DNA from: Escherichia phage FL20
Strand: one strand, 5' to 3'
DNA length: 64,000 nucleotides
Sequence record: PP400781
Shown one piece after another: positions 4,824-45,786 of the stretch. Every line of letters begins with the position of its first letter. The stretch's first letter is position 1. The position numbers and the translations under genes were made by a program. The notes under the pieces were generated by a model. The model ran no database searches. It was not told where the DNA came from and was given only the letters and a program-made list of their open reading frames with translations.

Positions 4824-6389
4824 ATGTTTAGTAGATTAAAAATGCTTGCGCGTTGGGCTGATTTTGACAACGACAAATACGAAGAACAAATTAAAGATAA
4901 AGCAGAGTCTATCGCCGCACCTAAAAACAATGATGGTGCTACGGAAGTAGAAATTAATGATAATTTACCTGCTAGCGCGTGGAACTCTCTTACCCAGCAA
5001 TTTTACAGCACCGACCAGAAAATCAGCACAACTAAGCAATTAGTTAACACATATCGCGGTTTGATGAATAACCATGAAGTCGAAAACGCTGTACAAAATA
5101 TCGTTAACGATGCGATTGTATTTGAAGAAGGTCATGAAGTTGTTTCATTAAATCTTGAGGCGACTGGCTTTAGTGAATCTGTAAAAGAGCGCATTCATGA
5201 AGAATTTAAAGATCTTTTAAACACTATCCAGTTTGATAGGCGCGGTCAGGATATGTTCCGTCGCTGGTATGTCGATTCGCGTATTTTCTTCCATAAAATC
5301 ATCGGCAAAAATCCAAAAGATGGTATCGTAGAATTACGCCAGCTTGACCCACGTAATCTTGAATACGTTCGAGAGATCATTACAGAAGACACACCGGAAG
5401 GTAAAATTTATAAAGCAACGAAAGAATATTTCATTTACACTGTAGGCAATAGCTCTTATTGCGCAGGTGGTCAAGTATTCTCTCCTAATAGTCGCGTTAA
5501 AATCCCGCGTAGTGCTATTACATACGCTCACAGCGGCTTGATGGATTGCGATGATAAATATATCATTGGTTATTTGCATCGGGCTGTTAAGCCAGCAAAC
5601 CAGCTTAAATTGTTGGAAGACGCAATGGTCGTTTATCGTATCACGCGTGCACCGGAACGCCGAGTGTTCTTTATTGATACCGGAAACATGAACAACCGCA
5701 AGGCTGCACAGCACATGAACTCAGTGGCACAGTCTTTTAAAAACCGCGTTGTTTATGATGCATCGACTGGTAAACTTAAAAACCAGCAAGCAAATCTATC
5801 AATGACAGAGGACTACTGGTTACAGCGTCGAGATGGTAAAGCAATCACCGACGTTACTACTTTACCCGGTGCATCCGGTATGAGTGATATCGATGATATT
5901 CGCTACTTTAACCGTAAATTGTATGAAGCGTTGCGTGTACCATTGTCACGCAGTAATCTCTCCGATGCTAATATGGTGATCGGTGGTGACGGTTCAGAAA
6001 TTACTCGCGATGAGTTGGAATTTTCGAAATTCATTAGAACTCTGCAATCACAGTTTTCGGAAGTATTGCGCGATCCTCTGAAATATAATCTGATTCTCAA
6101 AAATGTAATTACGGAAGACGATTGGGATCGTGAAATAAATAATATCAAGGTGGTTTTCCATCGGGACTCTTATTATACAGAAGTTAAAGACGCGGAAATT
6201 TTAGAACGTCGAATCGGTCTAATCGAACGTATTACACCTTACATTGGTAAATATTTCTCTAACCAGACAGTGATGCGTGACATTCTGAAATATACCGATG
6301 ACCAGATGGACACCGAGAAGAAACAGATCGAAGAAGAAGCGAACGATCCGCGCTTTAAACAAACTCCCGATGAAATAGAGGATTTTTAA
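4824..6389 (+). CDS. 20: portal vertex protein gp20
   Basis: 521 aa; synteny after gene 19; length matches T4 gp20. Confidence 0.9.
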   Translation: MFSRLKMLARWADFDNDKYEEQIKDKAESIAAPKNNDGATEVEINDNLPASAWNSLTQQFYSTDQKISTTKQLVNTYRGLMNNHEVENAVQNIVNDAIVFEEGHEVVSLNLEATGFSESVKERIHEEFKDLLNTIQFDRRGQDMFRRWYVDSRIFFHKIIGKNPKDGIVELRQLDPRNLEYVREIITEDTPEGKIYKATKEYFIYTVGNSSYCAGGQVFSPNSRVKIPRSAITYAHSGLMDCDDKYIIGYLHRAVKPANQLKLLEDAMVVYRITRAPERRVFFIDTGNMNNRKAAQHMNSVAQSFKNRVVYDASTGKLKNQQANLSMTEDYWLQRRDGKAITDVTTLPGASGMSDIDDIRYFNRKLYEALRVPLSRSNLSDANMVIGGDGSEITRDELEFSKFIRTLQSQFSEVLRDPLKYNLILKNVITEDDWDREINNIKVVFHRDSYYTEVKDAEILERRIGLIERITPYIGKYFSNQTVMRDILKYTDDQMDTEKKQIEEEANDPRFKQTPDEIEDF

Positions 6390-8635: not shown

Positions 8636-10234
8636 ATGAAAACTACCAAAGAACTGATGGAAAAATGGTCCCCGCTGCTGGAGAACGAAAAACTGCCGGA
8701 AATCGCAACTGCGTCTAAGCAGAAACTGGTTGCTAAAATTCTGGAATCTCAGGAAGCGGATTTTGCTGTAGACCCGATCTATAAGGATGAAAAAGTTGTT
8801 GAAGCATTCGGTGGCTTTATCGCAGAAGCCGAAGTTGCTGGCGACCACGGTTATGACGCATCTCAGATCGCGGCTGGTCAGACTACTGGTGCAATCACTA
8901 ACGTAGGTCCGGCTGTTATCGGTATGGTTCGCCGTGCTATTCCTAACCTGATCGCATTTGATATTTGTGGCGTTCAGCCGATGAGCACTCCGACTAGCCA
9001 GATCTTTGCAATCCGTTCTGTATACGGTCCAGATCCACTGGCAGGTGGCAATGCTCAGAATGTTCGTGAAGCATTCCATCCGATGTATGCGCCAGATGCT
9101 TTCCATAGCTCTCTTGCTGCTAAAGGTGCATCTGTAGGTTCTCCGACTGGGACTCCGTTTGCTAAACTAACTATCAATACTCAGATTGAAGCAGGTGATA
9201 TTGTACACCACACCTTCGCAGAAACTGGCATTGCATATCTGCAAAACGTTACCGCTGGCGCAGTAACCCCGGCCAAATCTGGCAGCGAGTCCGAAGATGA
9301 AGTTGTCATGAAGCTGATGGAAGAAGGTAAACTGGCTGAAATCGCTTTCGGTATGGCGACTTCCATTGCCGAAATTCAGGAAGGCTTTAACGGTTCCAGC
9401 AATAACCCGTGGGCTGAAATGTCAATGCGTATTGACAAACAGGTTGTTGAAGCGAAATCTCGCCAACTGAAAGCCCGTTACTCTATCGAAGTTGCGCAGG
9501 ATCTGCGTGCTGTACACGGTATGGATGCTGACGCTGAACTGAATGCTATCCTGGCTAACGAAGTTCTGCTGGAAATCAACCGTGAAATCGTTGACGTGAT
9601 CAACTTTACCGCTCAGGTTGGTAAGACTGGTATGACTCAGACCGTTGGTTCTAAAGCTGGTGTATTTGACCTGCAAGACCCGATCGATACTCGCGGTGCT
9701 CGTTGGGCTGGTGAATCCTTCAAATCTCTGATCTACCAGATCGACAAAGAAGCTGCTGAAATCGCTCGTCAGACTGGTCGCGGTGCTGGTAACTTTGTTA
9801 TCGCTTCCCGTAACGTTGTAAACATTCTGGCTTCTGCTGATCAGGGTATCAGTCTTGCTATGCAGGGTGCTGCAAAAGGTCTGAACACCGACACCACTAA
9901 AGCTGTTTTCGCTGGTGTTCTGGCTGGTAAGTACAAAGTGTTCATCGACCAGTATGCTCGTCAAGACTACTTCACCGTAGGTTACAAAGGCGACAACGAA
10001 ATGGATGCTGGTATCTACTATGCTCCGTATGTTGCTCTGACTCCGCTGCGTGCAACTGACCCGCAGTCTTTCCACCCGGTTCTGGGCTTCAAGACTCGCT
10101 ATGGCATCGGCATTAACCCGTTTGCAGACAGCAAATCCCAGGCACCGTCCGCTCGCATCACCTCCGGTATGTTGAGCAAAGACAGCGTAGGTAAAAACGC
10201 ATACTTCCGTCGTGTATGGGTTAAGGGTTGCTAA
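8636..10234 (+). CDS. 23: major capsid protein gp23
   Basis: 532 aa; extensive identity with T4 gp23 (GPAVIGMVRRAIPNLIAFDICGVQPM, IDKQV.EAKSRQLKA.YSIE.AQDLRAVHGMDADAEL, GIGINPFA). Confidence 0.97.
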   Translation: MKTTKELMEKWSPLLENEKLPEIATASKQKLVAKILESQEADFAVDPIYKDEKVVEAFGGFIAEAEVAGDHGYDASQIAAGQTTGAITNVGPAVIGMVRRAIPNLIAFDICGVQPMSTPTSQIFAIRSVYGPDPLAGGNAQNVREAFHPMYAPDAFHSSLAAKGASVGSPTGTPFAKLTINTQIEAGDIVHHTFAETGIAYLQNVTAGAVTPAKSGSESEDEVVMKLMEEGKLAEIAFGMATSIAEIQEGFNGSSNNPWAEMSMRIDKQVVEAKSRQLKARYSIEVAQDLRAVHGMDADAELNAILANEVLLEINREIVDVINFTAQVGKTGMTQTVGSKAGVFDLQDPIDTRGARWAGESFKSLIYQIDKEAAEIARQTGRGAGNFVIASRNVVNILASADQGISLAMQGAAKGLNTDTTKAVFAGVLAGKYKVFIDQYARQDYFTVGYKGDNEMDAGIYYAPYVALTPLRATDPQSFHPVLGFKTRYGIGINPFADSKSQAPSARITSGMLSKDSVGKNAYFRRVWVKGC

Positions 10235-10372: not shown

Positions 10373-10733
10373 AGGTTGCAAGCCTATATTCTATTGGGAG
10401 CGAAAATAGATACACACAACAAAGACAGGAAGATGCAGAACATCGGTGGGTTGCTAGCCTAAATCCGGTGGCTATGATATGTGATTGATTTTGATGCTGG
10501 ATTTATTAAAACACAACAAACAATTCCACCAATTTTCGTAGTAACTGCATGGCAAAGGGACCAATGAATGAAATGAGCGTTCATGTTGATATTGGGTCGG
10601 ATAGATTTGGTAGATATACAGATCTGGTGTATGCCGACCTTGTTATGACATTCCAGTGTGACGCTAGCGGTAATTTTTGGTTTTGGTACGCTGTTCCCCG
10701 AATTAACCCAAAATTCTCCATAAGGAGGAATGC

Positions 10734-10886
10734 ATGAGTAAGAAAGAAAACAGCTATGTTATGACTCGTAAGGAATACAACGAATTGATGTTAGCATTAG
10801 CTTATGCAATTATTCGTTCTGATCATGCAATTAATCTGGTAAACAAAGTTAACCGTAGCGTTGATAATGTTTCTAGGAAGAAGTAA
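10734..10886 (+). CDS. small hypothetical protein (50 aa)
   Basis: ATG preceded by strong RBS TAAGGAGG; not in the ORF track because below its length cut-off; start overlaps stop of ORF 10549-10737. Confidence 0.4.
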   Translation: MSKKENSYVMTRKEYNELMLALAYAIIRSDHAINLVNKVNRSVDNVSRKK

Positions 10887-10925
10887 GTTTATTTTTGGAA
10901 TCCTTTGGATTCCTTTTTCTTTTTG

Positions 10926-10933
10926 TATAAATA
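10926..10933 (+). promoter_or_regulatory. T4-type late promoter TATAAATA upstream of gene 24 (approximate)
   Basis: TATAAATA about 40 bp upstream of ATG at 10971. Confidence 0.6.
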
Positions 10934-10970
10934 TGATATATCCATTAAGGCAAATACAGGATTCATAAAC

Positions 10971-12212
10971 ATGACTCATATTTTTACTGAACTGTTGCGG
11001 GAATCTACTTCCTCAGTAGCTAACCAGACAGCGCGACCGCAACTATTATCATTAACTCGCGCGGTAAACAACCTGATTTTCTCTGATCTGGTAGCAATCC
11101 AGCCAACGGATCAACCAGTATCTGCATTGTACGGCCTACGTTATCTTAATCATGATGGTCAGATGACTTTCCGAACTGCTGCAACCTACGGTGGCGCGGT
11201 TGGTGATCGCACAGAGATTGAAGAGTTTTCAAAAGAAAAATCTTATGACGAAGGCGCACTATTCAAATCAGGCGATGTTGTATACGAAGTTGTGACCGCT
11301 GGTACAGTCGGTGAAGATGCCGCAACTCCAGAAGCTGCGATCTTTAAAGGCGTAATGACAAACAAAATTCGTTTCTATAGCGATTGTGCATCGGTAGAAT
11401 ACTTTGAAGATAAAAACACCGAAATTGCGTCTACCTCTATGCAGTTTGACAAGTGGCAAGTTAATGTAGGTTCTCGTAAACTGAAAACCTCATTCACGAC
11501 CGAATTGATGCAGGATCTTGAGGCAAGCCAAATCAACTCTGAAAACTCTGTAATTGATCTTCTGGCGACTGTTGCTTCCGAAGAGATCAACAAAGATATT
11601 ATTCAGAAGTTGATCACTGTATCATCTCGCTATAAAATTAAAGGGATCACCCCTGATGGCGTACTTTCTCTCGTTAGCGTTCAGGATGCACCAACACAAG
11701 CGCGTGAACTTTACCGCTACGCGTGCGAGATGAGCAATCAAATGTTGCGGACTTCCTCCTTTGCTGGTACATACGTTTTGGCGTCTTCTCGCGTGGTTGG
11801 CCTCCTGCAATCATCCGGTTGGATGGAAGAAACCGACAATGCTCTAAGCGAAGGTCGTCTACGTTGCGGTCTGGAAGTGTACGCAGACACGACAACACCT
11901 TTCGATTATATGCTCGTTGGTTGTAAGCACATGATCGGTGATATGGAGAGTGTAGGTTCTCTGTTCTACTCCCCATATACAGAAGCCGACGGCGCTGGCG
12001 CGTATAAGAGCGTAATTGACCCTAATAGCTTCCAGCATCATGTAGCTATTATGAATCGTTATTCACTATCTGTCAACCCATACACATCAAAAGTTGATCA
12101 GGAAGAACACCAGGTCATCAAGGGTGACGATTGGGGTAAAATGGCTGGACGTTCAGAAATGTCCTACATTTTAGGAATCGAACTGCCACCGCTTGAGATT
12201 GACAACGCTTAA
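10971..12212 (+). CDS. 24: capsid vertex protein gp24
   Basis: Track ORF 10905-12212 begins with an alternative start codon; first ATG at 10971 gives 413 aa starting MTHIFTELLRES, aligning with T4 gp24 N-terminus. Confidence 0.9.
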   Translation: MTHIFTELLRESTSSVANQTARPQLLSLTRAVNNLIFSDLVAIQPTDQPVSALYGLRYLNHDGQMTFRTAATYGGAVGDRTEIEEFSKEKSYDEGALFKSGDVVYEVVTAGTVGEDAATPEAAIFKGVMTNKIRFYSDCASVEYFEDKNTEIASTSMQFDKWQVNVGSRKLKTSFTTELMQDLEASQINSENSVIDLLATVASEEINKDIIQKLITVSSRYKIKGITPDGVLSLVSVQDAPTQARELYRYACEMSNQMLRTSSFAGTYVLASSRVVGLLQSSGWMEETDNALSEGRLRCGLEVYADTTTPFDYMLVGCKHMIGDMESVGSLFYSPYTEADGAGAYKSVIDPNSFQHHVAIMNRYSLSVNPYTSKVDQEEHQVIKGDDWGKMAGRSEMSYILGIELPPLEIDNA

Positions 12213-25084: not shown

Positions 25085-26142
25085 TGAAAATTAGTGTTAT
25101 CAATGATGCCGTTGATAGCTTTAAAGCGGGGGTTAAAACCTCCGCTGGTTTTACCTCAAAAAATAAAGGAAAAACATTAACCGCTCAATTCCCCGCTGAA
25201 CGTGCTAGCGGTAATGATGCTAGCGGTTATTATATCAACGACTTATATAATAATGGTCTGTTATTCACTGCATACGATTATACATCTCGTACTACTGGTT
25301 CGTTGCGTGATTTCAGGAAAAAGAAAAATGTTGCTAGCGGTTTTGGCGGTAGCGTTAATATCGCTGGTTTTGATTTAAATTTGGGTGGGAGAAATGCTGC
25401 ATTTGACCGAGAGGCAATTGCTAATATTCTTCTTCCTCGTAGTCAATCTGACGTTGACGCTGCTAGCCATAAGTTTAATGATGTTGGTGAATCTGTCATT
25501 TCTCGCGGTGGTGGTACTTTAGGCGGTGCTCTTTCTAATATGGCATCTACTGCCGTTTTTGGTGGTATCGAAAGTATTACTGGTGGATACCTTGCCGATC
25601 ACGGTGAACAGATTTATAATACTGCGCGAAGCATGTATGCTGGTGCTGACGCACGAACTAAAAACTACGTATGGCATCTAACCCCACGTAGTATTGAAGA
25701 CCTTCGCAATATTTTGATCATATACGAAACGTTTTTAGAGTTGTCTTATGGGTCTAGTGGTATTTCCAGCACCGCAAAAGAATTAAAAGCGGAAGTTGAT
25801 GCGTGGTATAAAAATACACTATTGAGAAAATCCACCCCAGAGGAAGCGAAGAGAAATGATACTCTGTTTGAAGGGATCACCGATTTTCTATCAAACGCAA
25901 TTACTGTATCTAACCCGACAATATGGATGATCTCTAACTTCGGCAAGCGTACATCGTTTGAAGGGCGTAGCGATGCATTTGGTCCCGCTCAGATCTCAAG
26001 TGTACGTCTGGACAAGTCGCCTGATGGTAAGTTTAATGGCCTTGCTATTTCTCCTAACTTGCCTAGTACATTTGTTCTGGAAGTATCATTTAGAGAGATC
26101 TTGACACTTTCCCGTGGTACTATATTTGGGAGTGTGGTATAA
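25084..26142 (+). CDS. 48: baseplate tail-tube junction protein gp48
   Basis: 352 aa; synteny and size. Confidence 0.85.
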   Translation: MKISVINDAVDSFKAGVKTSAGFTSKNKGKTLTAQFPAERASGNDASGYYINDLYNNGLLFTAYDYTSRTTGSLRDFRKKKNVASGFGGSVNIAGFDLNLGGRNAAFDREAIANILLPRSQSDVDAASHKFNDVGESVISRGGGTLGGALSNMASTAVFGGIESITGGYLADHGEQIYNTARSMYAGADARTKNYVWHLTPRSIEDLRNILIIYETFLELSYGSSGISSTAKELKAEVDAWYKNTLLRKSTPEEAKRNDTLFEGITDFLSNAITVSNPTIWMISNFGKRTSFEGRSDAFGPAQISSVRLDKSPDGKFNGLAISPNLPSTFVLEVSFREILTLSRGTIFGSVV

Positions 26143-27074
26143 TGTTTGATTTAAATGATTTTAACGAACAAGCCGCTAACCTTGACTTTCAGCGATCTAA
26201 CTTATTCAGCGTGGCATTTGCCACCACTCCAAGTAATAAGACACAAGCGATCCTAGAAAGTATGGGCGGTGCGGTATATGATATTATACCAAATGCATTA
26301 AATGACTATTTCGGGATTACTCGTGGTGATTATACTGACGCATTAACAAATCTTGCTGTACAGGGTGTTAGGCGTGCTGTTGATTCATCCGGTGTCAAAA
26401 AGTATCTTTTAGGTGCAATGTCATCCCGCGTAGTTCAATCTCTTCTGGGGCAATTTGATGTTGGTACATATGCGCTTGACTGGTTCAATATGGCATATAA
26501 GACAAGCGGTCTTCTGGTGTATGCTGTTAAGGTTCCAGAAAACAGATTGAATTATGAAATGGACCGTAACCACAATGCGCCAAACATTCGAATTACCGGA
26601 CGTGATTTTGATCCGCTTGTATTGAGCTTTAGAATGGACTCTAGCGCATCAAACTATAGAGCAATGCAGGATTGGGTTAACTCAGTAGAAGACCCCGTTA
26701 CAGGGCTTCGTGCGCTTCCTGTTGACGTTGAAGCAGATATTCAGGTTAACTTACATAACCGAATGGGAGTTCCTCACACGATCATGATGTTTAATGGTTG
26801 TGTTCCTGTTGGTGTGAGTGCACCGGAATTAACCTATGAAAATAACAACGAAATTACAACATTCGATGTTACTTTTGCGTATAGGACTATGCAAACTGGT
26901 GCTGTAGGAGAGCAAGCCGCGCGAGAATGGATTGAGGATAAGGCAATAAACGCAATAACAAACACTTTCGGCAATAATTTACTTGATAGTGGGTTATCTG
27001 CTGCTGGTAATGCTTTATCGCGTCTAAATGGCGTTGGTGGACGTGTGGTGAATACTGTCACTAACTGGTTCTGA
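26142..27074 (+). CDS. 54: baseplate tail-tube initiator gp54
   Basis: 310 aa; synteny and size. Confidence 0.85.
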   Translation: MFDLNDFNEQAANLDFQRSNLFSVAFATTPSNKTQAILESMGGAVYDIIPNALNDYFGITRGDYTDALTNLAVQGVRRAVDSSGVKKYLLGAMSSRVVQSLLGQFDVGTYALDWFNMAYKTSGLLVYAVKVPENRLNYEMDRNHNAPNIRITGRDFDPLVLSFRMDSSASNYRAMQDWVNSVEDPVTGLRALPVDVEADIQVNLHNRMGVPHTIMMFNGCVPVGVSAPELTYENNNEITTFDVTFAYRTMQTGAVGEQAAREWIEDKAINAITNTFGNNLLDSGLSAAGNALSRLNGVGGRVVNTVTNWF

Positions 27075-27082
27075 TAAACGAA

Positions 27083-27107
27083 AGGCGGGGATAATCCCCG
27101 CCTTTTT
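27083..27107. terminator. bidirectional rho-independent terminator between gene 54 and the minus-strand accessory block (approximate)
   Basis: Stem aggcgggg/ccccgcct with ATAAT loop, A-tract 5' and T-tract 3'. Confidence 0.7.
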
Positions 27108-27591
27108 ATTTTGCTAAATCATTGCAATATTTTAGTGCCTTAGTTTGAAATTCTGCGCTGTTAAGTTCTTCATAACGGTCATAATCACCGTTTAATGCTG
27201 CCTTTCTTGCTTCTTGCTCTATCTGCATGTCAGACATGATAATACAGCGATCCCGTGCTTTCATCTTCTCAAGTTGTATAGACTCTTCTTTCTGCTTGCG
27301 CAATTCTTCTTGACGCTTCTTTTCTTCTCGTGCTTTCTCTTCCCGCGCTTCTTTGATTGCATCCTTGAACATCTGCGTTTGTGGTGCTAAACCAACTTTA
27401 ACTCGATCTACGTCTCGACGTTCCATTTTAGAAATAAAGCATGATTCGATCTGATCATCACTTGCATATGCTGTTTTACATTCACGAAGCAAGAAAACCG
27501 GATCTGATTTAGCATTCATCATAGCTTCCATGTTGGCACAACCAGTAAGCATGAATGCAGCCGCAAGACCAATCAGTTTAATCATTTTCAT
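27106..27591 (-). CDS. putative lipoprotein
   Basis: N-terminal signal peptide with lipobox LTGC (MKMIKLIGLAAAFMLTGC); charged coiled-coil-like C-terminal half. Confidence 0.6.
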   Translation of the reverse strand: MKMIKLIGLAAAFMLTGCANMEAMMNAKSDPVFLLRECKTAYASDDQIESCFISKMERRDVDRVKVGLAPQTQMFKDAIKEAREEKAREEKKRQEELRKQKEESIQLEKMKARDRCIIMSDMQIEQEARKAALNGDYDRYEELNSAEFQTKALKYCNDLAK

Positions 27592-28412
27592 TTAGTCACC
27601 TCACCGAAAATTGTAAATTGTCTACGATTCTCATCGCCGAAAGATTCTACTACGTCGTTTACCTTGACGCAAGTCCCGCGCGGTAAAATTACTTCACATT
27701 CGCAAGGATTCCATGCAATTGACCCAACAACAAAACCTTTATGATCTTTTACGTCAATTACCCATGATACATTACAAGAATGTTGCATCTTTCCGGTCAT
27801 TGATTCATATCGATTCTCACAATAAAGGCTAGTGCTGTTTGATAGCCATCCTCCAAAGATGATCGGTGTCATGCTGGTAGATACAAAGTTTTTAAAGGTA
27901 AACTCCTTATATTCAATGATACGCTCTATTGTCTGAATGTCAAGATGTTGACCGCGATAAAGAGTACCGTTTAACTTTTCGGTTTTATCCATGACGCAAT
28001 CCATCAAATCGACAATCTCTGATATCTCATCGGTCATGTCTTCTTCCCCTAAGAGAGCACCATTTACCCATTCGTATTGTTCAGATACATAATCACAGAT
28101 TGCATTATATTCTGCTGGTGTTATGTTGTTATGTTTGTAATGTTTGAATACATTATCTCCAAAGTCTTCGGAGTGTACTTCATACATCACATTAATGATT
28201 TTCTTGACAAATCCATAATCTTGTGTCTCACGCTCAAGGAAGCGGATAACCTTCACATAATCATCAAAGTTAATCTGATCACTGATCATCTCAGTGATCA
28301 TGTAACCATTAATCCCCTCAATGTCATATGTTTCGATGTAATTATCCATACGTTCCATCATTGATTCGCGTGATTCTTCTGAAATACGAAAATCCTGTAA
28401 TTTCTTGAACAT
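27588..28412 (-). CDS. ADP-ribosyltransferase, Alt/Mod-family paralog (274 aa)
   Basis: R-S-ExE catalytic signature: LYRGQ ... FKNFVSTS ... CECEVILPRG, parallel to the Alt C-terminal domain encoded just upstream. Confidence 0.7.
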   Translation of the reverse strand: MFKKLQDFRISEESRESMMERMDNYIETYDIEGINGYMITEMISDQINFDDYVKVIRFLERETQDYGFVKKIINVMYEVHSEDFGDNVFKHYKHNNITPAEYNAICDYVSEQYEWVNGALLGEEDMTDEISEIVDLMDCVMDKTEKLNGTLYRGQHLDIQTIERIIEYKEFTFKNFVSTSMTPIIFGGWLSNSTSLYCENRYESMTGKMQHSCNVSWVIDVKDHKGFVVGSIAWNPCECEVILPRGTCVKVNDVVESFGDENRRQFTIFGEVTK

Positions 28413-28433
28413 TTTAAGCCTCCCATATAACAG

Positions 28434-28462
28434 AAAACGGGGCTAGTATAAAACTAGTCCCC
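28434..28462 (-). other. stem-loop between alt and the Alt-like gene (approximate)
   Basis: Imperfect inverted repeat ggggctag/ctag-t-cccc. Confidence 0.35.
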
Positions 28463-28490
28463 GTTTGAGTCAACCATTATTTCTTAAAAA

Positions 28491-30542
28491 TTACATTTTA
28501 AATTTATCTGGCATTGCGTCTACAGATACCAGATCAGCGATAAGCTGACGTAGAGTTGCCTTATCTGCTTTCTTACGTTCGGTTTTAGCTTCGGTAATAA
28601 AGCTGGAGAAAGACAGGTCAGAAGCAGGTTTAATAACACCTTCACGGATGAATGCATCACCGTCCGCGATCATCTCGCCAGATTCTTGTAATGCTGCCAG
28701 TTCATTTTTGTTCATAATATGTGCCTCAATGTAATAAGTTTCTTGTGAATCCGTCGATGCCGTAGCACGAGTTACCGTATCAAAGGATAACACAACACCG
28801 CGAGGAAGTAAAATCTCGCATTCTTTGTAAGCAAATGCTTTGTTACCTACTGGCAAGACAGGGATGTTTTCCGCGCCAGCAATGGAGAAAGCAACATTAG
28901 CGCCACCTTCACCACGAGAGCCAGCCATAGAATCAACACCAGCAACGGCACTAGCCACGTTTGCATTCCAGCCGCCAAAAATGTTAGGTGCAAGGGAAGT
29001 GCTCACATAGTTTTTAAAGTAAAACGCTTTTTGCTTACGTGCAGTTTCCCACATTTGCGACCGGAAGTCCATACCACGATACAGAATAGTACCCGGATCA
29101 AGTTTAACTCCATAGTTGGAGAAGGCATTATCCAGTGCATCACACATCTTGACCAATTCTTCTGGATCTGCGATGCCTTCAAACTCTTCCAGCTTACGGT
29201 CGGTTAGGAAGTTGTTCATATTGATGTATGCTGCATCGGCATATTCGCTCAACACAAAACCTTCCGCGCCCGGCAGATCAAGATCAATATCTGCCATCAT
29301 TTCACCCATGTTGCTAGCAATTGCTTCAAACATACCGGAAGCAACATTACGTAGGGCATCGGTTTTAATCTGGGTGATGTGACTACGCAGCATTTCAGCT
29401 TTTACATCTGCTGGCATAGACTGGTCTACTCGATCCATTGCCAGGGCGGTGATCTTGTTTTCGAATACTTCCTCGCTCATGATTTCTTTTAAGCGTTTGA
29501 TTGATGCTGCGATAACTTCCGCAGACAATGGATCATATTGATCCTGAACTTTTACCAGTTCGCTTACTGCGTATTTTGCATCGGCTTCGCTTTCAAAAAT
29601 AGTACGCATGAAACCATAGCGAGTGATAATATCACTTGTCCAGTCATTCAGAGAACGAGCGGTTGAACGTTCTAAGGCTTGACGGTCAATCAGAGTATTA
29701 AACTGTTTCTTAGGTTCTGCTTCGGTGATATCTTCTTCCGGTTTAAGATTAATTTTTTCTGGATGATTCACATAGTCGCTGTTATAGGTCGCTTGAGTTT
29801 TCAGCATTTCTTCTTTAGTCAAACGAGATTTAGCCGCTACGCGTTGTTCTGCTTCCGCGTTTCGTTCTTCTTCTGACACAAGACTAGCCGCATATGCCTC
29901 ATCTTTAGTCAGAGATTCACCAGTAGCCTTAGATACCCAGCGATCACCTAAATCACTTTCTACTTTAGTGAACAAGGATTCATCAAGTTTAATCCCTTTA
30001 ATCTTATCAATCGCCATCCCGCGACGCTTGACAACAACTAAAGCGATCTTTTTGCTGGTCATTACTTCCTGCTGGAATACTTCAAACTTCGGTGTACGAC
30101 GCACCAAACGCTCTATAACGCGCTTAACCAGTTCGGTCTTACCTTTCATGCGGGATACGTTAAAACGGAACATAACAGCGTCTAATTGCGCTTTACGGGC
30201 TGTTTCCATAACCACATCAAAAGCACTTGACATAACTGCAATCGGGTTATCGCCTAGACCATTTTTAAGCTGTACAATACGACCGCTTTTGTTCATTTCG
30301 CACAGTACAACATGTGCGGTCTTGTCACCCATACGAATGATTTTAGGTGTTTTGTTGGTGAAGTTACAAAGACGGACAATCACATCTTTATCGCGTGTCT
30401 GTACTGCAAAAAGCTGTTTAGGATTCTGCTTAGGCTTTAAGCACTGTACCGGGGCAATACTACCAAAGTTTTCTTCCTCTTCCGTCAACAGCCATTTCTC
30501 GAAAGATTCAATCATTAGATCGTCGATTTCTAAGTTAAACAT
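28491..30542 (-). CDS. alt: Alt ADP-ribosyltransferase (injected internal head protein)
   Basis: 683 aa, T4 Alt is about 682 aa; C-terminal ART motifs LYRGMDF ... FKNYVSTS ... ECEILLPRG; synteny (after gene 54). Confidence 0.85.
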   Translation of the reverse strand: MFNLEIDDLMIESFEKWLLTEEEENFGSIAPVQCLKPKQNPKQLFAVQTRDKDVIVRLCNFTNKTPKIIRMGDKTAHVVLCEMNKSGRIVQLKNGLGDNPIAVMSSAFDVVMETARKAQLDAVMFRFNVSRMKGKTELVKRVIERLVRRTPKFEVFQQEVMTSKKIALVVVKRRGMAIDKIKGIKLDESLFTKVESDLGDRWVSKATGESLTKDEAYAASLVSEEERNAEAEQRVAAKSRLTKEEMLKTQATYNSDYVNHPEKINLKPEEDITEAEPKKQFNTLIDRQALERSTARSLNDWTSDIITRYGFMRTIFESEADAKYAVSELVKVQDQYDPLSAEVIAASIKRLKEIMSEEVFENKITALAMDRVDQSMPADVKAEMLRSHITQIKTDALRNVASGMFEAIASNMGEMMADIDLDLPGAEGFVLSEYADAAYINMNNFLTDRKLEEFEGIADPEELVKMCDALDNAFSNYGVKLDPGTILYRGMDFRSQMWETARKQKAFYFKNYVSTSLAPNIFGGWNANVASAVAGVDSMAGSRGEGGANVAFSIAGAENIPVLPVGNKAFAYKECEILLPRGVVLSFDTVTRATASTDSQETYYIEAHIMNKNELAALQESGEMIADGDAFIREGVIKPASDLSFSSFITEAKTERKKADKATLRQLIADLVSVDAMPDKFKM

Positions 30543-30572
30543 TTTATATCCTCTAGTTGATAACCTATAAAC

Positions 30573-30609
30573 CTATATTTATGAAAACGGGGCTTAACGC
30601 CCCCTTTTT
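30573..30609. terminator. hairpin plus T-tract between 70-aa gene and alt (approximate)
   Basis: Stem ggggc/gcccc followed by T5. Confidence 0.5.
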
Positions 30610-30610
30610 A

Positions 30611-30823
30611 TTATAATGCACCATCGAGCAATTGCTCTAAGGTGTATCCTGAATAGTCTTTTTCAATCAGGATATATTTTCCTACTCGTTTAATACAACC
30701 GCGCATTTCAACGTATTCTGCGTAGTTGATGGTGCGAGTTGTTCCATCTTCCAGTAATGCAGTACCGATTTCGTTAATGCGGTCATAAGTTACGTCGGTA
30801 ATGATGATTTCGATGTTAGCCAT
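30611..30823 (-). CDS. hypothetical protein (70 aa), PeSL-driven
   Basis: ORF directly downstream of a PeSL cassette with GGAG RBS. Confidence 0.55.
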   Translation of the reverse strand: MANIEIIITDVTYDRINEIGTALLEDGTTRTINYAEYVEMRGCIKRVGKYILIEKDYSGYTLEQLLDGAL

Positions 30824-30894
30824 TTGATACTCCTTAGTAGTTCGTTTCGGTATGAGTGTATTATGATATACACCATCTGTTATGTCAACAACTT
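30824..30894 (-). promoter_or_regulatory. PeSL-type early promoter cassette copy 1 (-35 TTGACA, 17-bp spacer, -10 element, about 22-nt leader, GGAGNA RBS)
   Basis: Read on minus strand: TTGACA ...17 bp... CATAAT ... GGAGTATCAAATG; short palindrome overlaps the -10. Confidence 0.7.
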
Positions 30895-31074
30895 TTAGAA
30901 CATTTTTGAAATTAATTCTGCTTTGATTTCGCAGAGAACATCTAAAGATTTCTCGTCACCCGCTTTTGCTGCTTCTGCTTGCATTTTTGAAATGGCTTCA
31001 ATGTCAGTGCAATTATAAGCCGCTTGAACTTTAGCTATTGCGATGATTGCCGATTCGATGGTTAAGTGTTTCAT
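30895..31074 (-). CDS. small hypothetical protein (59 aa), PeSL-driven
   Basis: ATG at 31074 placed via the plus-strand track ORF frame; RBS GGAGAA; N-terminus MKHLTIESAI. Confidence 0.45.
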   Translation of the reverse strand: MKHLTIESAIIAIAKVQAAYNCTDIEAISKMQAEAAKAGDEKSLDVLCEIKAELISKMF

Positions 31075-31143
31075 GTTTGATTCTCCTTTCGTTTCGGTAT
31101 GTGTGCATTATAGGGGATCACCGATCCCCCTGTCAACAATTTT
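31075..31143 (-). promoter_or_regulatory. PeSL cassette copy 2 with GGGGATC-N3-GATCCCC palindrome in the promoter spacer
   Basis: Minus strand: TTGACA-aGGGGATCggtGATCCCC-TATAAT ... GGAGAA-N6-ATG. Confidence 0.75.
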
Positions 31144-31662
31144 TTAGTTATTTTTTAATTGCTCATCTTGCAATAGGGCAATCACATGCTGGCGATGTTC
31201 TTCCGATTGAGGCACACCGAAAAAGTTTGTTTTGTAGAAATACTCTAATCGGTCTTCTCGTGTGCTCTCTTCCATCATGATCGCGGGTAGTCCGAGATTT
31301 CGGAAACGTCGCTTTTCTGCTGGCGTAAAATCACTGTAATACAACATAGAATCATCATTACAAGCAATGCTAAACTCATCCTTCATAAAGGAGAATATTG
31401 CGTTTAAACGCTGTTTACCGTCCACGATTTCGATCTCATAGCGAGAGCCATCATCAATCTTAGCCATTGCGATAGCACCAACCGGAAAATCATTAATCAG
31501 GTTTTCGATAAACATACGTTTGTTTTCGGTGTCCCATACTAAAGGACGCTGATAATCTGGGTTCATGTTGATATAGCCATCTTCTAACCATGCATCATAA
31601 ACAGAGATGACAAAGTTTTTAGTATTGGTATAGTAACGGCGTTTAGGCGTTAAACGGTTCAT
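31144..31662 (-). CDS. DUF262 / ParB-like (GmrSD N-terminal domain-like) protein
   Basis: Track ORF 31144-31698; Met13 start (RBS AGGAG) gives 172 aa; motifs YQRPLVW...LI..FPVG and the DGQQR-type box IVDGKQRL. Confidence 0.7.
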   Translation of the reverse strand: MNRLTPKRRYYTNTKNFVISVYDAWLEDGYINMNPDYQRPLVWDTENKRMFIENLINDFPVGAIAMAKIDDGSRYEIEIVDGKQRLNAIFSFMKDEFSIACNDDSMLYYSDFTPAEKRRFRNLGLPAIMMEESTREDRLEYFYKTNFFGVPQSEEHRQHVIALLQDEQLKNN

Positions 31663-44616: not shown

Positions 44617-45786
44617 TTACCAATCAATCTTATCAGCCGGAATCAGTTTCTTATAATTCCGTAGATAGTAAGTTTTCATTGAAGCCAGAATACGGTCATA
44701 ATCAAGACCATCAAATGCAATCATCAGACACATGAAAATATATGATTGTGCATCACCATGTTTACGTGATTCGATAGTCGCATTGGATGCATATGTCTTT
44801 CTGTCTTCTCCCGCGTGTGCGTTATAAAATTCTGTTGCTGTCGTAAAGGCATTGCGAAGAATGGACCTGAATGCTTCCTCGAATAGCTCAATTCGTTCCA
44901 GTGCTTCCGGTTCTCCTTCATATGCAGCACGCAAATCATCGGTTTCGCTTTCTACGACATAGTAGATCAGGTTATTAGGAAACATAGATGTGTTTTTAAT
45001 GTTATGCACACCAATATACCATTCACTCTTCACCTTGAACATTTGACCGTCTTTAGTGCGTGCAACAATTCCTTCGATACCTTCTGCGGTCCGAACTTCA
45101 TCAAGAATATTGCTAAAACGCGCTGAATCAACCTGTAACGCATTTACCAGATGAGGACGTAGGATTGCGTCAGCAAATAGCATTTGATGCGGTACGTACT
45201 CTCCTGTGACGTTATGGCGTACATTCAGAAGTGTTAGCGACGGTTCAGAATATTCTACAACAATTCGGTTGCTGGGTGCTGTATATTCAAAGTTGAAAGT
45301 ATAATCAGACCCAATATCAGCAATCTTAGCGCGTAGATCCGCATACTTCTCTGAATACAGAAGACCGTTTGCTCTCTCTGCCTGGCTTGAGTACAAGGCC
45401 GCTTTAGACTTCAACTGAACATAGCCGTTATCAATGTAGGTGCTTACTAGACTACCGTCCATTTTGTCCATGACCATTTCCACATCTTCCGACTTAAAGC
45501 GAGCGCGATCATTCTCGCCTAAATTAAAAAACTTCTCCATAGGACGAGATGCAATGCGGACCGGACGACCTTTATCGTCAATTTCAAACATGATCCCGCG
45601 ACACTCTAACGCATCTGGTTTATTCCACATTTCCGGTTTGCTCAAGTACAGATAACTAAAAATGCGCATACGGGTTTGCATCGCCGTAATTTCATCTTTG
45701 TAATAGAACGTATCAGATCCGTCACATAGTGCCATCAGATTTTTGAACAATGCTAAAACTTTTTTGTTGTTTTCTTTTGTTGACAT
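44617..45786 (-). CDS. rnlA: RNA ligase 1
   Basis: 389 aa; blocks ALECRGIMFE, RIASRPMEKFFNL, KMDGSLVS (nucleotidyl-lysine motif), GKDRKTYA match T4 Rnl1. Confidence 0.93.
   Translation of the reverse strand: MSTKENNKKVLALFKNLMALCDGSDTFYYKDEITAMQTRMRIFSYLYLSKPEMWNKPDALECRGIMFEIDDKGRPVRIASRPMEKFFNLGENDRARFKSEDVEMVMDKMDGSLVSTYIDNGYVQLKSKAALYSSQAERANGLLYSEKYADLRAKIADIGSDYTFNFEYTAPSNRIVVEYSEPSLTLLNVRHNVTGEYVPHQMLFADAILRPHLVNALQVDSARFSNILDEVRTAEGIEGIVARTKDGQMFKVKSEWYIGVHNIKNTSMFPNNLIYYVVESETDDLRAAYEGEPEALERIELFEEAFRSILRNAFTTATEFYNAHAGEDRKTYASNATIESRKHGDAQSYIFMCLMIAFDGLDYDRILASMKTYYLRNYKKLIPADKIDW

Follow-up and report, generated by a model that had tools for sequence, protein, structure and literature searches.

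In Escherichia phage FL20, the slot between alt and gene 54 probably holds a two-gene early unit, which comprises a non-packaged paralog of the Alt catalytic domain and a functionally independent, exported lipoprotein. The paralog is referred to here as the short ADP-ribosyltransferase (ART). The DNA analysed is a stretch of 64,000 nucleotides from sequence record PP400781 (the window). It is Krischvirus DNA, from an RB49-like, T4-type coliphage, and the region is 98–99% identical to RB49-group phages.

Gene organization between alt and gene 54

The ART gene is an ORF of 274 aa at 27588..28412 on the minus strand, corresponding to RB49p183 (RB49ORF183c). The lipoprotein gene, RB49p182, is an ORF of 161 aa at 27106..27591 (−). 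The two genes overlap by 4 bp, an ATGA at 27588..27591 (−) containing the stop codon of the ART gene and the start codon of the lipoprotein gene (junction sequence GGTGAGGTGACTAAATGAAAATG). The alt gene, at 28491..30542 (−), encodes the full-length parent paralog of 683 aa; it is annotated in RefSeq, matches phrog_802 at 2e-179, and its product is presumably packaged. A gap of 78 nt separates alt from the ART gene, and the convergent late gene 54 flanks the far side of the unit. The span of the two ORFs, their overlap and the location of the ART gene immediately downstream of alt had been given in a preliminary description of this DNA, and all are confirmed here. It also placed modA and modB at another location in T4, which is correct. 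The slot between alt and gene 54 is a variable one, and in T4 it is filled instead by alt.-1, alt.-2 and alt.-3. The ART and lipoprotein genes co-occur in the same 58 phage records.

Neither gene is new. RefSeq annotates RB49p183 as an ADP-ribosyltransferase "similar to C-terminal part of T4 Alt", and a 2006 paper (PMC1524935) lists RB49ORF183c as an alt paralog that arose by duplication, so its relation to alt was already known. The lipoprotein homolog is annotated as 'putative lipoprotein' in the record of phage W115 and as 'Lipoprotein' in a UniProt-derived description of phage KFS-EC. LipoP is among the annotation tools listed in the W115 genome paper (PMC9355613).

Active site, fold and selection of the short ART

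The ART matches Pfam PF03496 (ADPrib_exo_Tox) over residues 82–266 with an E value of 2.6e-15 and 56.7 bits, against a cutoff of 23.4 bits, and phrog_15144, 'ADP-ribosyltransferase', at 1e-196. With these scores the assignment is far beyond chance. The motifs LYRGQ (residues 151–155), FKNFVSTS (173–180) and CECEVILPRG (237–246) noticed earlier are all present, as is the lipobox LTGC of the neighbouring protein, and their codons were read off the sequence. The catalytic Arg153 in LYRGQ is encoded at 27954..27956 (−) and is invariant in nine family members. Ser178-Thr179-Ser180 (STS), at 27873..27881 (−), is invariant in the family, and so are Glu238 and Glu240 of Glu238-Cys239-Glu240 (ExE), at 27693..27701 (−). 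R153, STS and ExE are unchanged in family members with identity as low as 23%, and the catalytic residues are invariant where the overall identity is 40–48%.

A MAFFT alignment of the ART with the window Alt, T4 Alt, T4 ModA, T4 ModB and the RB49 Mod shows R153, E238 and E240 to be invariant, while the STS motif is common only to the ART and both Alts, not to the Mods. The complete R-S-ExE signature attributed to this Alt-family paralog is therefore borne out. The ExE motif is typical of arginine-specific ADP-ribosyltransferases, and an enzyme of this type needs cytoplasmic NAD+. Since the R-S-ExE active site is intact, the ART is predicted to be an NAD+-dependent, arginine-specific mono-ADP-ribosyltransferase. 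It has no signal peptide and no hydrophobic or transmembrane segment, the maximum Kyte-Doolittle hydropathy over 19 residues being 0.99, and by these measures the protein is soluble.

The AF2 model of the ART has a pLDDT of 84 and a pTM of 0.83. The top Foldseek matches of the model in the PDB are Vis, Certhrax, C3, CDTa, iota and C2-I, with a probability of 1.00 and E values of 4e-11 to 1e-8; those for Vis, C3, iota and C2-I are of the order of 1e-9 to 1e-11. The ART shares its fold and active-site triad with the C3, Vis, iota, C2-I and CDTa toxins, and has the ExE motif of the arginine-specific members. However, its identity to these toxins is 16–20%, and the toxins are secreted, whereas the phage ART would act inside the infected cell. 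Compared with the bacterial R-S-E toxins, it also carries an additional helical region, formed by about 95 residues at the N-terminus.

The dN/dS of the ART is 0.04–0.07 against a diverged relative, and the protein is 96–99% identical across all 58 phage records bearing the gene. The ART is under strong purifying selection.

Relationship to Alt and the Mod proteins

The match of the ART to the Alt-like phrog_802 (1.2e-44) covers profile positions 329–602 of 674. BLASTP finds 31% identity with T4 Alt over 181 residues (E 3e-23) and 37% identity with the window's own Alt over 109 residues (E 1e-16), the alignment being confined to Alt residues 413–593. The ART lacks about 330 residues at the N-terminus of Alt and about 90 at its C-terminus, as seen from the phrog_802 match and from the MAFFT alignment, in which the tail is absent. 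The full-length Alt architecture of about 680 aa, with an N-terminal region and a C-terminal tail, is thus not found in the 274-aa protein. The tandem alt paralog has kept the catalytic domain only.

No significant pairwise similarity to ModA or ModB was found by BLASTP (E 0.40 and 1.2, respectively). The genuine Krischvirus Mod is RB49p014, which matches ModB at 8e-11. An earlier assignment of the ART to an "Alt/Mod family" therefore holds for the Alt catalytic domain and is too broad for the Mods. Judged by these comparisons, the ART is an Alt catalytic domain and not a member of the Mod family.

T4 Alt is a packaged enzyme that ADP-ribosylates RNA polymerase, and it belongs to the T4Alt/VIP2 family of the R-S-E clade. 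The ART and T4 Alt both carry LYR, FVSTS and E-x-EVILPRG, and the ART gene lies beside alt on the same strand. They differ in that the ART is without the N- and C-terminal Alt regions and has its own early-type promoter (see below). Because of these two differences, the ART is probably not a virion protein; it would be synthesised anew in the cytoplasm during early infection, not packaged and injected. Like ModA and ModB, the early, non-packaged ARTs of T4, the protein is small and likely made early, and its catalytic Arg and ExE can be aligned with theirs; unlike in the Mods, where it is degenerate, the STS motif is intact, and the genomic location is different. By analogy, then, the ART may work as a Mod does without belonging to the Mod family.

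The ADP-ribosyltransferases of a composite Krischvirus genome are Alt, the short ART and one ModB-like gene. As the Krischviruses have only one mod gene, and this is ModB-like, the short ART plausibly fills a third ART role. Candidate targets would be the alpha subunit of host RNA polymerase and other cytoplasmic proteins.

Another comparison is offered by T4 alt.-1 and alt.-2, which match Alt residues 1–62 and 63–117 at 58–62% identity. They too lie in the slot downstream of alt and derive from a second alt copy (PMC1524935). However, they are short N-terminal pieces with no catalytic domain, whereas the Krischvirus ART is the complementary, catalytically intact C-terminal part.

Transcription and translation signals

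A sigma-70 promoter of early type, TTGACT and TATACT with a spacer of 17 nt, is located between alt and the ART gene at 28445..28473 (−). With the upstream G included, its −35 element reads GTTGAC and fits the early −35 preference reported for RB49 (PMC1524935). The promoter and terminator calls are consensus matches, and promoter-like sites are no commoner in the scanned region than in shuffled sequence. The argument for the promoter therefore rests on its conservation. Relatives with ARTs of only 40–48% identity have exactly these hexamers at this spacing, and the promoter is kept in these phages though the flanking coding DNA has no detectable nucleotide similarity.

The promoter is accompanied by a conserved, terminator-like hairpin after alt at 28435..28466 (−), followed by UUUUCUGUU. 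The predicted RNA fold has an energy of −24.8 kcal/mol (z = −3.3), and the hairpin is kept in relatives, where one pair has changed from U-A to C-G in a compensatory manner. The hairpin and the −10 hexamer of the ART promoter overlap. The Shine-Dalgarno sequence of the ART gene, GGGAGG, is read at 28419..28424 (−). That of the lipoprotein gene, GAGG, lies 7–10 nt upstream of the start within the 3′ end of the ART gene.

A bidirectional intrinsic terminator at 27080..27106, with a 12-bp stem, seven GC pairs and T-runs on both sides, is common to the ART-lipoprotein unit and the convergent gene 54; it is annotated 'terminator' in several phage records. An Rfam scan of positions 26000–31500 gave sub-threshold matches on this terminator only. 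A late-promoter-like core, ATAAATA, occurs at 30582 upstream of alt, and none occurs upstream of the ART gene. A possible internal promoter for the lipoprotein gene, TTGACA-16-TATCAT at 27943–27916 inside the ART gene, was rejected; distant relatives do not conserve it, and it probably follows simply from the coding sequence.

We infer from these signals that the ART and lipoprotein genes form an early transcription unit with its own promoter. Read-through from alt could also give late expression of the ART.

Features of the lipoprotein

The N-terminus of the lipoprotein, MKMIKLIGLAAAFMLTGC, has a positively charged N-region, a hydrophobic H-region and, in its first ~20 residues, a lipobox conforming to [LVI][ASTVI][GAS]C. 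The lipobox, L15-T16-G17-C18 with Ala at +2, is encoded at 27538..27549 (−); in relatives it is LTGC, LNGC, LVGC or LFGC. The N-terminal segment is the sole hydrophobic segment of the protein. Among 13 members, down to 24% identity, the residues G17, C18, C38, C51, D60, G67, C116, G135 and C156 are invariant. With the signal peptide and the lipobox Cys kept over this range, the downstream gene holds up as a genuine predicted lipoprotein. The protein would be exported through Sec and lipidated at Cys18, and the Ala at +2 makes sorting to the outer membrane probable.

The mature form, of 143 residues, is helical throughout, with 41% of its residues charged, and contains Cys38, Cys51, Cys116 and Cys156, which may form two pairs. 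The AF2 model (pLDDT 87) is helical, with a long helix at residues 72–133. This central helix is rich in Glu, Lys and Arg, and its length differs between alleles.

The lipoprotein matches the profile phrog_16112, of unknown function. Searches of the PDB by sequence, Pfam, PHROG, NCBIfam and PADLOC gave no meaningful characterised match, and fold and profile searches matched no characterised protein. When 1.84 billion representative proteins were searched with a profile, only ten proteins matched, all from the lipoprotein's own family. As far as these searches reach, the family is tiny and restricted to Krischvirus-like phages.

Several roles for the lipoprotein were considered. An o-spanin is a short proline-rich lipoprotein of the outer membrane whose gene adjoins that of an i-spanin, and a u-spanin is a lipoprotein that ends in a transmembrane domain. 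The present protein has no C-terminal hydrophobic segment and is all-helical and highly charged, and homologs of the pseT.2/pseT.3 spanins are present elsewhere in the genome; the o-spanin and u-spanin roles were thus rejected. A crude lipobox regular expression missed the phage's o-spanin, so we do not present this protein as its sole lipoprotein. Masking of the phage's own receptor was rejected as well. Variant alleles occur with both types of gp38 adhesin (RB49 type, 3 of 13 phages; other type, 4 of 12), showing no association between lipoprotein allele and gp38 type in these phages. Nor is the divergence of the lipoprotein due to positive selection: the dN/dS of the lipoprotein is ~0.10 against a diverged relative and its dS is five times that of the ART, which points to recombination together with purifying selection.

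Our best guess for the lipoprotein is an early envelope function, for example superinfection exclusion. It resembles T5 Llp and Cor, phage lipoproteins that exclude superinfecting phages or block receptors, and the T4 exclusion proteins Sp and Imm of periplasm and membrane in being a small envelope protein, putatively exported early, from a virulent phage. It has no sequence or fold similarity to them, however, and homology to the exclusion lipoproteins of the Llp/Cor type was not found; the parallel is by analogy only. No Sp or Imm homolog was found in the composite Krischvirus genome, which leaves room for the lipoprotein as a possible functional analog.

Recombination at the junction of the two genes

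Comparison of related phages reveals a mosaic at the ART/lipoprotein junction. In phage 011D4, a DNA identity of 98.6% ends after the first 38 nt of the lipoprotein gene and is regained 17 nt ahead of the stop codon. Against L008, dS rises from 0.2 in alt and the ART gene to ~1.0 in the lipoprotein gene and 0.8 in gene 54. Lipoprotein alleles only 29–33% identical are found behind ARTs that are 97–99% identical. In these genomes the junction is a repeated recombination breakpoint, and the lipoprotein alleles have been swapped by recombination.

The order alt, ART, lipoprotein, with overlapping frames, is kept even where the ARTs are 40–43% identical, and relatives have overlaps of 1 nt or 8 nt between the ART and lipoprotein genes. 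The lipoprotein would be translationally coupled to the ART while remaining functionally independent of it. The swapping of alleles beside a constant ART, together with the different compartments of the two proteins, argues against a functional partnership; the two genes seem to be transcribed together without having a function in common. The preliminary description had suggested that the pairing with an envelope lipoprotein might indicate a different target or localisation for the ART. This suggestion is not supported, given the lack of a signal peptide or hydrophobic segment in the ART and the exchange of its neighbour at the breakpoint.

Alternative explanations

It is rather improbable that the ART and the lipoprotein form a two-component module, whether a toxin/immunity-like pair, an ART acting on the lipoprotein precursor or maturation machinery, or an envelope-directed ART. 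Such a module would agree with the order and coupling of the genes (overlaps of 1 to 8 nt), which are kept while the ARTs are 40–43% and the lipoproteins 30–39% identical, and with the single conserved promoter before and single terminator after both genes. ART toxins with adjacent immunity proteins are also known, and the fold search matched 6dre and 8za7. Yet the components of a toxin/immunity pair share a compartment and co-evolve, whereas here the ART has neither a signal peptide nor a transmembrane segment and its neighbour is predicted to be exported. The junction between them is a recurrent breakpoint, and at least three lipoprotein allele types, of ~30% identity, stand behind a nearly constant ART with no co-variation. 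The conserved order is explained by common descent, as all the relatives have the same alt and gene 54 flanks.

Two further explanations concern the ART itself. That it is also a virion protein, injected like Alt after late read-through and packaged by a route independent of the Alt N-terminus, seems to us similarly doubtful. The gene is directly downstream of alt with its late-promoter-like ATAAATA core, the hairpin between the two may stop transcription only partly, and ~44% of phage ARTs are found in contexts suggesting packaging (PMC9503650). But the ART has no counterpart of anything before Alt residue ~330 or of the conserved tail at the C-terminus, and its conserved promoter is of early type with no late-type motif. 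Slightly less probable still is a redundant or decaying alt duplicate with no role of its own, comparable to alt.-1 and alt.-2 of T4. These fragments of a second alt copy show that duplicates do decay in this slot, and the Krischvirus copy is itself shortened at both ends. Against decay stand the dN/dS of 0.04–0.07, the 96–99% identity in all 58 records, the catalytic residues invariant at 40–48% identity, and a conserved promoter and ribosome-binding site belonging to the gene. With only 31–37% identity to either Alt, the ART is an old, diverged copy and not a recent one.

A more far-reaching reading, which we hold to be unlikely, is that the early operon carries two host-takeover functions, an ART with its own target set and a new family of outer-membrane lipoproteins in exclusion or envelope protection. 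The targets of the ART might then be different from those of Alt, such as a defence or translation factor, or NAD-capped RNA as for ModB, and the ART would be a functional replacement for the second Mod missing in Krischviruses. The lipoproteins would be anchored in the outer membrane, periplasmic and disulfide-stapled, built on the long charged helix. Their alleles would be cassettes traded in an arms race of related phages without Sp and Imm.

Implications

The favoured reading remains that of an early unit with a non-packaged Alt catalytic domain and an independent lipoprotein. The practical value of the ART is modest, as its annotation goes back to the publication of the RB49 genome and its paralogy to alt was pointed out in 2006. 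Of the two genes, that of the lipoprotein is less well understood, and its product could reasonably be proposed as an exclusion factor acting at the envelope in phages that find wide use in therapy. The short ART provides a natural experiment, in which the Alt catalytic domain is freed from the Alt regions that it lacks and placed under its own promoter in a phage with one Mod. A comparison of its targets with those of Alt, ModA and ModB would reveal how the choice of target is encoded in this family.

The short ADP-ribosyltransferase is a catalytic-core paralog of Alt

The ADP-ribosyltransferase (ART) ORF (27588..28412, minus strand, 274 aa) and the lipoprotein ORF (27106..27591, minus strand, 161 aa), both read from the sequence, are joined by an ATGA overlap. 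These ORFs, the overlap and the motifs quoted in the preliminary description are all present, the motif codons having been checked in the sequence. The 1.8 kb around the two genes is found at full length and 98–99% identity in 50 genomes of RB49-group phages (genus Krischvirus, Straboviridae), including RB49, Phi1, JSE and FL15. In RB49 the ART is RB49p183 and the lipoprotein RB49p182; alt (RB49p184) lies on one side of the two genes and the late gene 54, which is convergent, on the other. The RefSeq annotation of RB49p183 reads 'ADP-ribosyltransferase; similar to C-terminal part of T4 Alt protein'. RB49ORF183c, together with T4 alt.-1 and alt.-2, was named as a paralogous duplication of the adjacent alt (Nolan et al. 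2006, PMC1524935); no other paper in the literature searched mentions it. The ART is thus not a new gene: both its annotation and the literature already give it as an alt paralog.

The ART matches Pfam PF03496 (ADP-ribosyltransferase exoenzyme; E 2.6e-15, well over the curated cutoff), phrog_15144 'ADP-ribosyltransferase' over its whole length, and the Alt family phrog_802 (1e-44, profile positions 329–602 of 674). By BLASTP, the ART is 31% identical to T4 Alt over 181 residues (E 3e-23) and 37% identical to the Alt of the window over 109 (E 1e-16), and it shows no significant similarity to T4 ModA (E 0.4) or ModB (E 1.2). Compared with Alt, about 330 N-terminal residues and a C-terminal tail of about 90 residues are missing. 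The assignment as an ART is sound, and the observation correct. Neither a hydrophobic segment nor a signal peptide was found in the ART sequence.

The catalytic Arg, Ser and Glu positions are not lost. When the ART is aligned by MAFFT with both Alt C-terminal halves, T4 ModA, T4 ModB and RB49 Mod, residues R153, E238 and E240 do not vary; the STS motif is common to the ART and the Alts, and its position is degenerate in the Mods. LYRGQ, STS and E-x-EVILPR are invariant among nine ART homologs with identity down to 23%. The AlphaFold model (pLDDT 84, pTM 0.83) matches Vis, Certhrax, C3, CDTa, iota toxin Ia and C2-I (E 4e-11 to 1e-8). The protein is 96–99% identical among 58 phage genomes, with dN/dS of 0.04–0.07 against a relative of 90% DNA identity. 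The intact residues, the fold and this conservation together predict a maintained, almost certainly active enzyme.

In T4, the slot is occupied by alt.-1, alt.-2 and alt.-3. The first two (5817–6202 of the T4 locus L003) match Alt residues 1–62 (58% identity) and 63–117 (62% identity), and so represent the 5′ part, now decayed, of a second copy of alt. T4 has kept this part, whereas Krischvirus has the intact 3′ catalytic part in the same slot. The alt.-2 family phrog_15247 also matches residues 77–128 of the window's Alt. RB49 has a single mod gene, adjoining srd (8917–9420 of the RB49 locus L007, outside the window), and its product is nearer ModB (8e-11) than ModA (2e-6). By tblastn, a composite Krischvirus genome has exactly three ART loci, Alt, the ART and the ModB-like Mod; T4 also has three, Alt, ModA and ModB. 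From these counts it can reasonably be inferred that the third ART activity in Krischvirus comes from the short ART.

Expression signals

A sequence scan of the 78-nt spacer between alt (28491..30542, minus strand) and the ART identified a candidate early-type promoter on the minus strand, TTGACT-17-TATACT. With its upstream G, the −35 element reads GTTGAC, matching the early −35 preference described for RB49 (PMC1524935). In addition, the spacer has a strong hairpin (−24.8 kcal/mol, z = −3.3), after which comes UUUUCUGUU. The promoter/hairpin element has hardly changed in metagenomic relatives with ARTs at only 40–48% identity and with flanking coding DNA in which no nucleotide similarity to the window was detectable; in the hairpin, one stem pair has undergone a compensatory change.

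The late-promoter-like core ATAAATA occurs only upstream of alt, at 30582, and was not found upstream of the ART. It lies 40 nt before the alt start and is the sole ATAAATA on the minus strand between 27000 and 30700; a GC hairpin at 30589–30603, terminator-like on both strands, precedes it (region 30576–30603, minus strand). A bidirectional terminator (27080–27106, both strands) ends the ART-lipoprotein unit against gene 54. Together, these consensus matches and their conservation suggest that alt would be expressed late, and the ART and lipoprotein early. Late expression is expected for a packaged protein such as Alt.

Another near-consensus site, TTGACA-16-TATCAT (27916–27943, minus strand), lies within the ART gene, about 325 nt before the lipoprotein gene begins. 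Close Krischviruses retain this site but distant relatives lack it, which makes a working internal promoter improbable.

Upstream of alt, within the early cluster, 31144–31662 (minus strand) encodes a 172-aa protein with a GmrSD_N (DUF262) domain only (Pfam E 5.9e-20). The adjoining gene bears the annotation 'DNA methyltransferase' in RB49. The 172-aa protein may have a decoy or anti-restriction function.

The lipoprotein

The lipobox does follow a signal peptide: the N-terminus MKMIKLIGLAAAFMLTGC-A is predicted to be a textbook signal peptidase II signal. The ORF is a 'putative lipoprotein' in the record of phage W115, and LipoP is one of the annotation tools named in the W115 genome paper (PMC9355613); the phage KFS-EC homolog is described as 'Lipoprotein'. 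The family is very small. By tblastn it was found only in the 58 phage records that carry the ART, and among 1.84 billion representative proteins a profile search recovered 10.

A comparison of 13 family members, with identities as low as 24%, shows residues G17, C18, C38, C51, D60, G67, C116, G135 and C156 to be invariant. The four conserved cysteines of this exported protein point to two periplasmic disulfides, for which the helix layout of the model makes C38–C51 and C116–C156 the likely pairs. The model (pLDDT 87) consists of helices only, one of them 62 residues long; Glu, Lys, Arg and Asp make up 68% of the central 40 residues of this long helix. The length of this helix differs between alleles (homologs P0033, P0038–P0041, P0050–P0057), and one variant carries an 11-residue tandem duplication. 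No similar fold outside the family was found among solved structures and predicted viral structures.

The protein is not a spanin, since pseT.2 and pseT.3 homologs exist elsewhere in the genome. The annotated RB49 pseT.2 ORF (10607–11322 of the RB49 locus L020, about 44705–45420 of the window, minus strand) has an internal lipobox, ALSSC, at about residues 63–67, by which the o-spanin probably starts at an internal Met. No transmembrane segment was seen in the annotated pseT.3 product. Both spanin gene models look imprecise.

Relation between the two genes

The preliminary description regarded the pairing of an ART with an envelope lipoprotein as unusual and possibly indicative of a different target or localisation. 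A functional pair would agree with the gene order, since relatives with ARTs of only 40–43% identity keep alt, ART, lipoprotein and convergent gene 54, with the same cysteine pattern in the lipoprotein and reading frames that overlap or abut. However, the order is explained by shared ancestry, the flanks being the same in all these relatives, and the ART-lipoprotein junction is a recombination hotspot. In phage 011D4, 98.6% DNA identity stops 38 nt into the lipoprotein gene and restarts 17 nt short of its stop codon; in phages Whisky and JK32, identity breaks off within the signal-peptide codons. In the comparison with contig L008, alt and the ART have a dS of 0.2, whereas the value is about 1.0 in the lipoprotein gene and 0.8 in gene 54. 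The lipoprotein of eight Krischviruses has only about 30% identity to the common allele, yet lies behind ARTs that are 97–99% identical. The compartments also differ, the ART having no signal peptide and the lipoprotein being exported. A functional pair is therefore not supported, and we conclude that the two genes share a transcript, not a mechanism. With dN/dS at about 0.10, the divergence of the lipoprotein comes from allele exchange under purifying selection and not from positive selection.

Possible roles

No association was seen between lipoprotein allele type and gp38 adhesin type, and no homologs of the T4 exclusion genes sp and imm were detected in the composite Krischvirus genome (E <= 1). 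That the ART has a distinct target set and the lipoprotein founds a new exclusion-type family, both together, seems rather unlikely. The lipoprotein by itself might act in superinfection exclusion or envelope protection, a role that its putative early expression, envelope location and allele swapping, and the lack of detected Sp and Imm, would fit.
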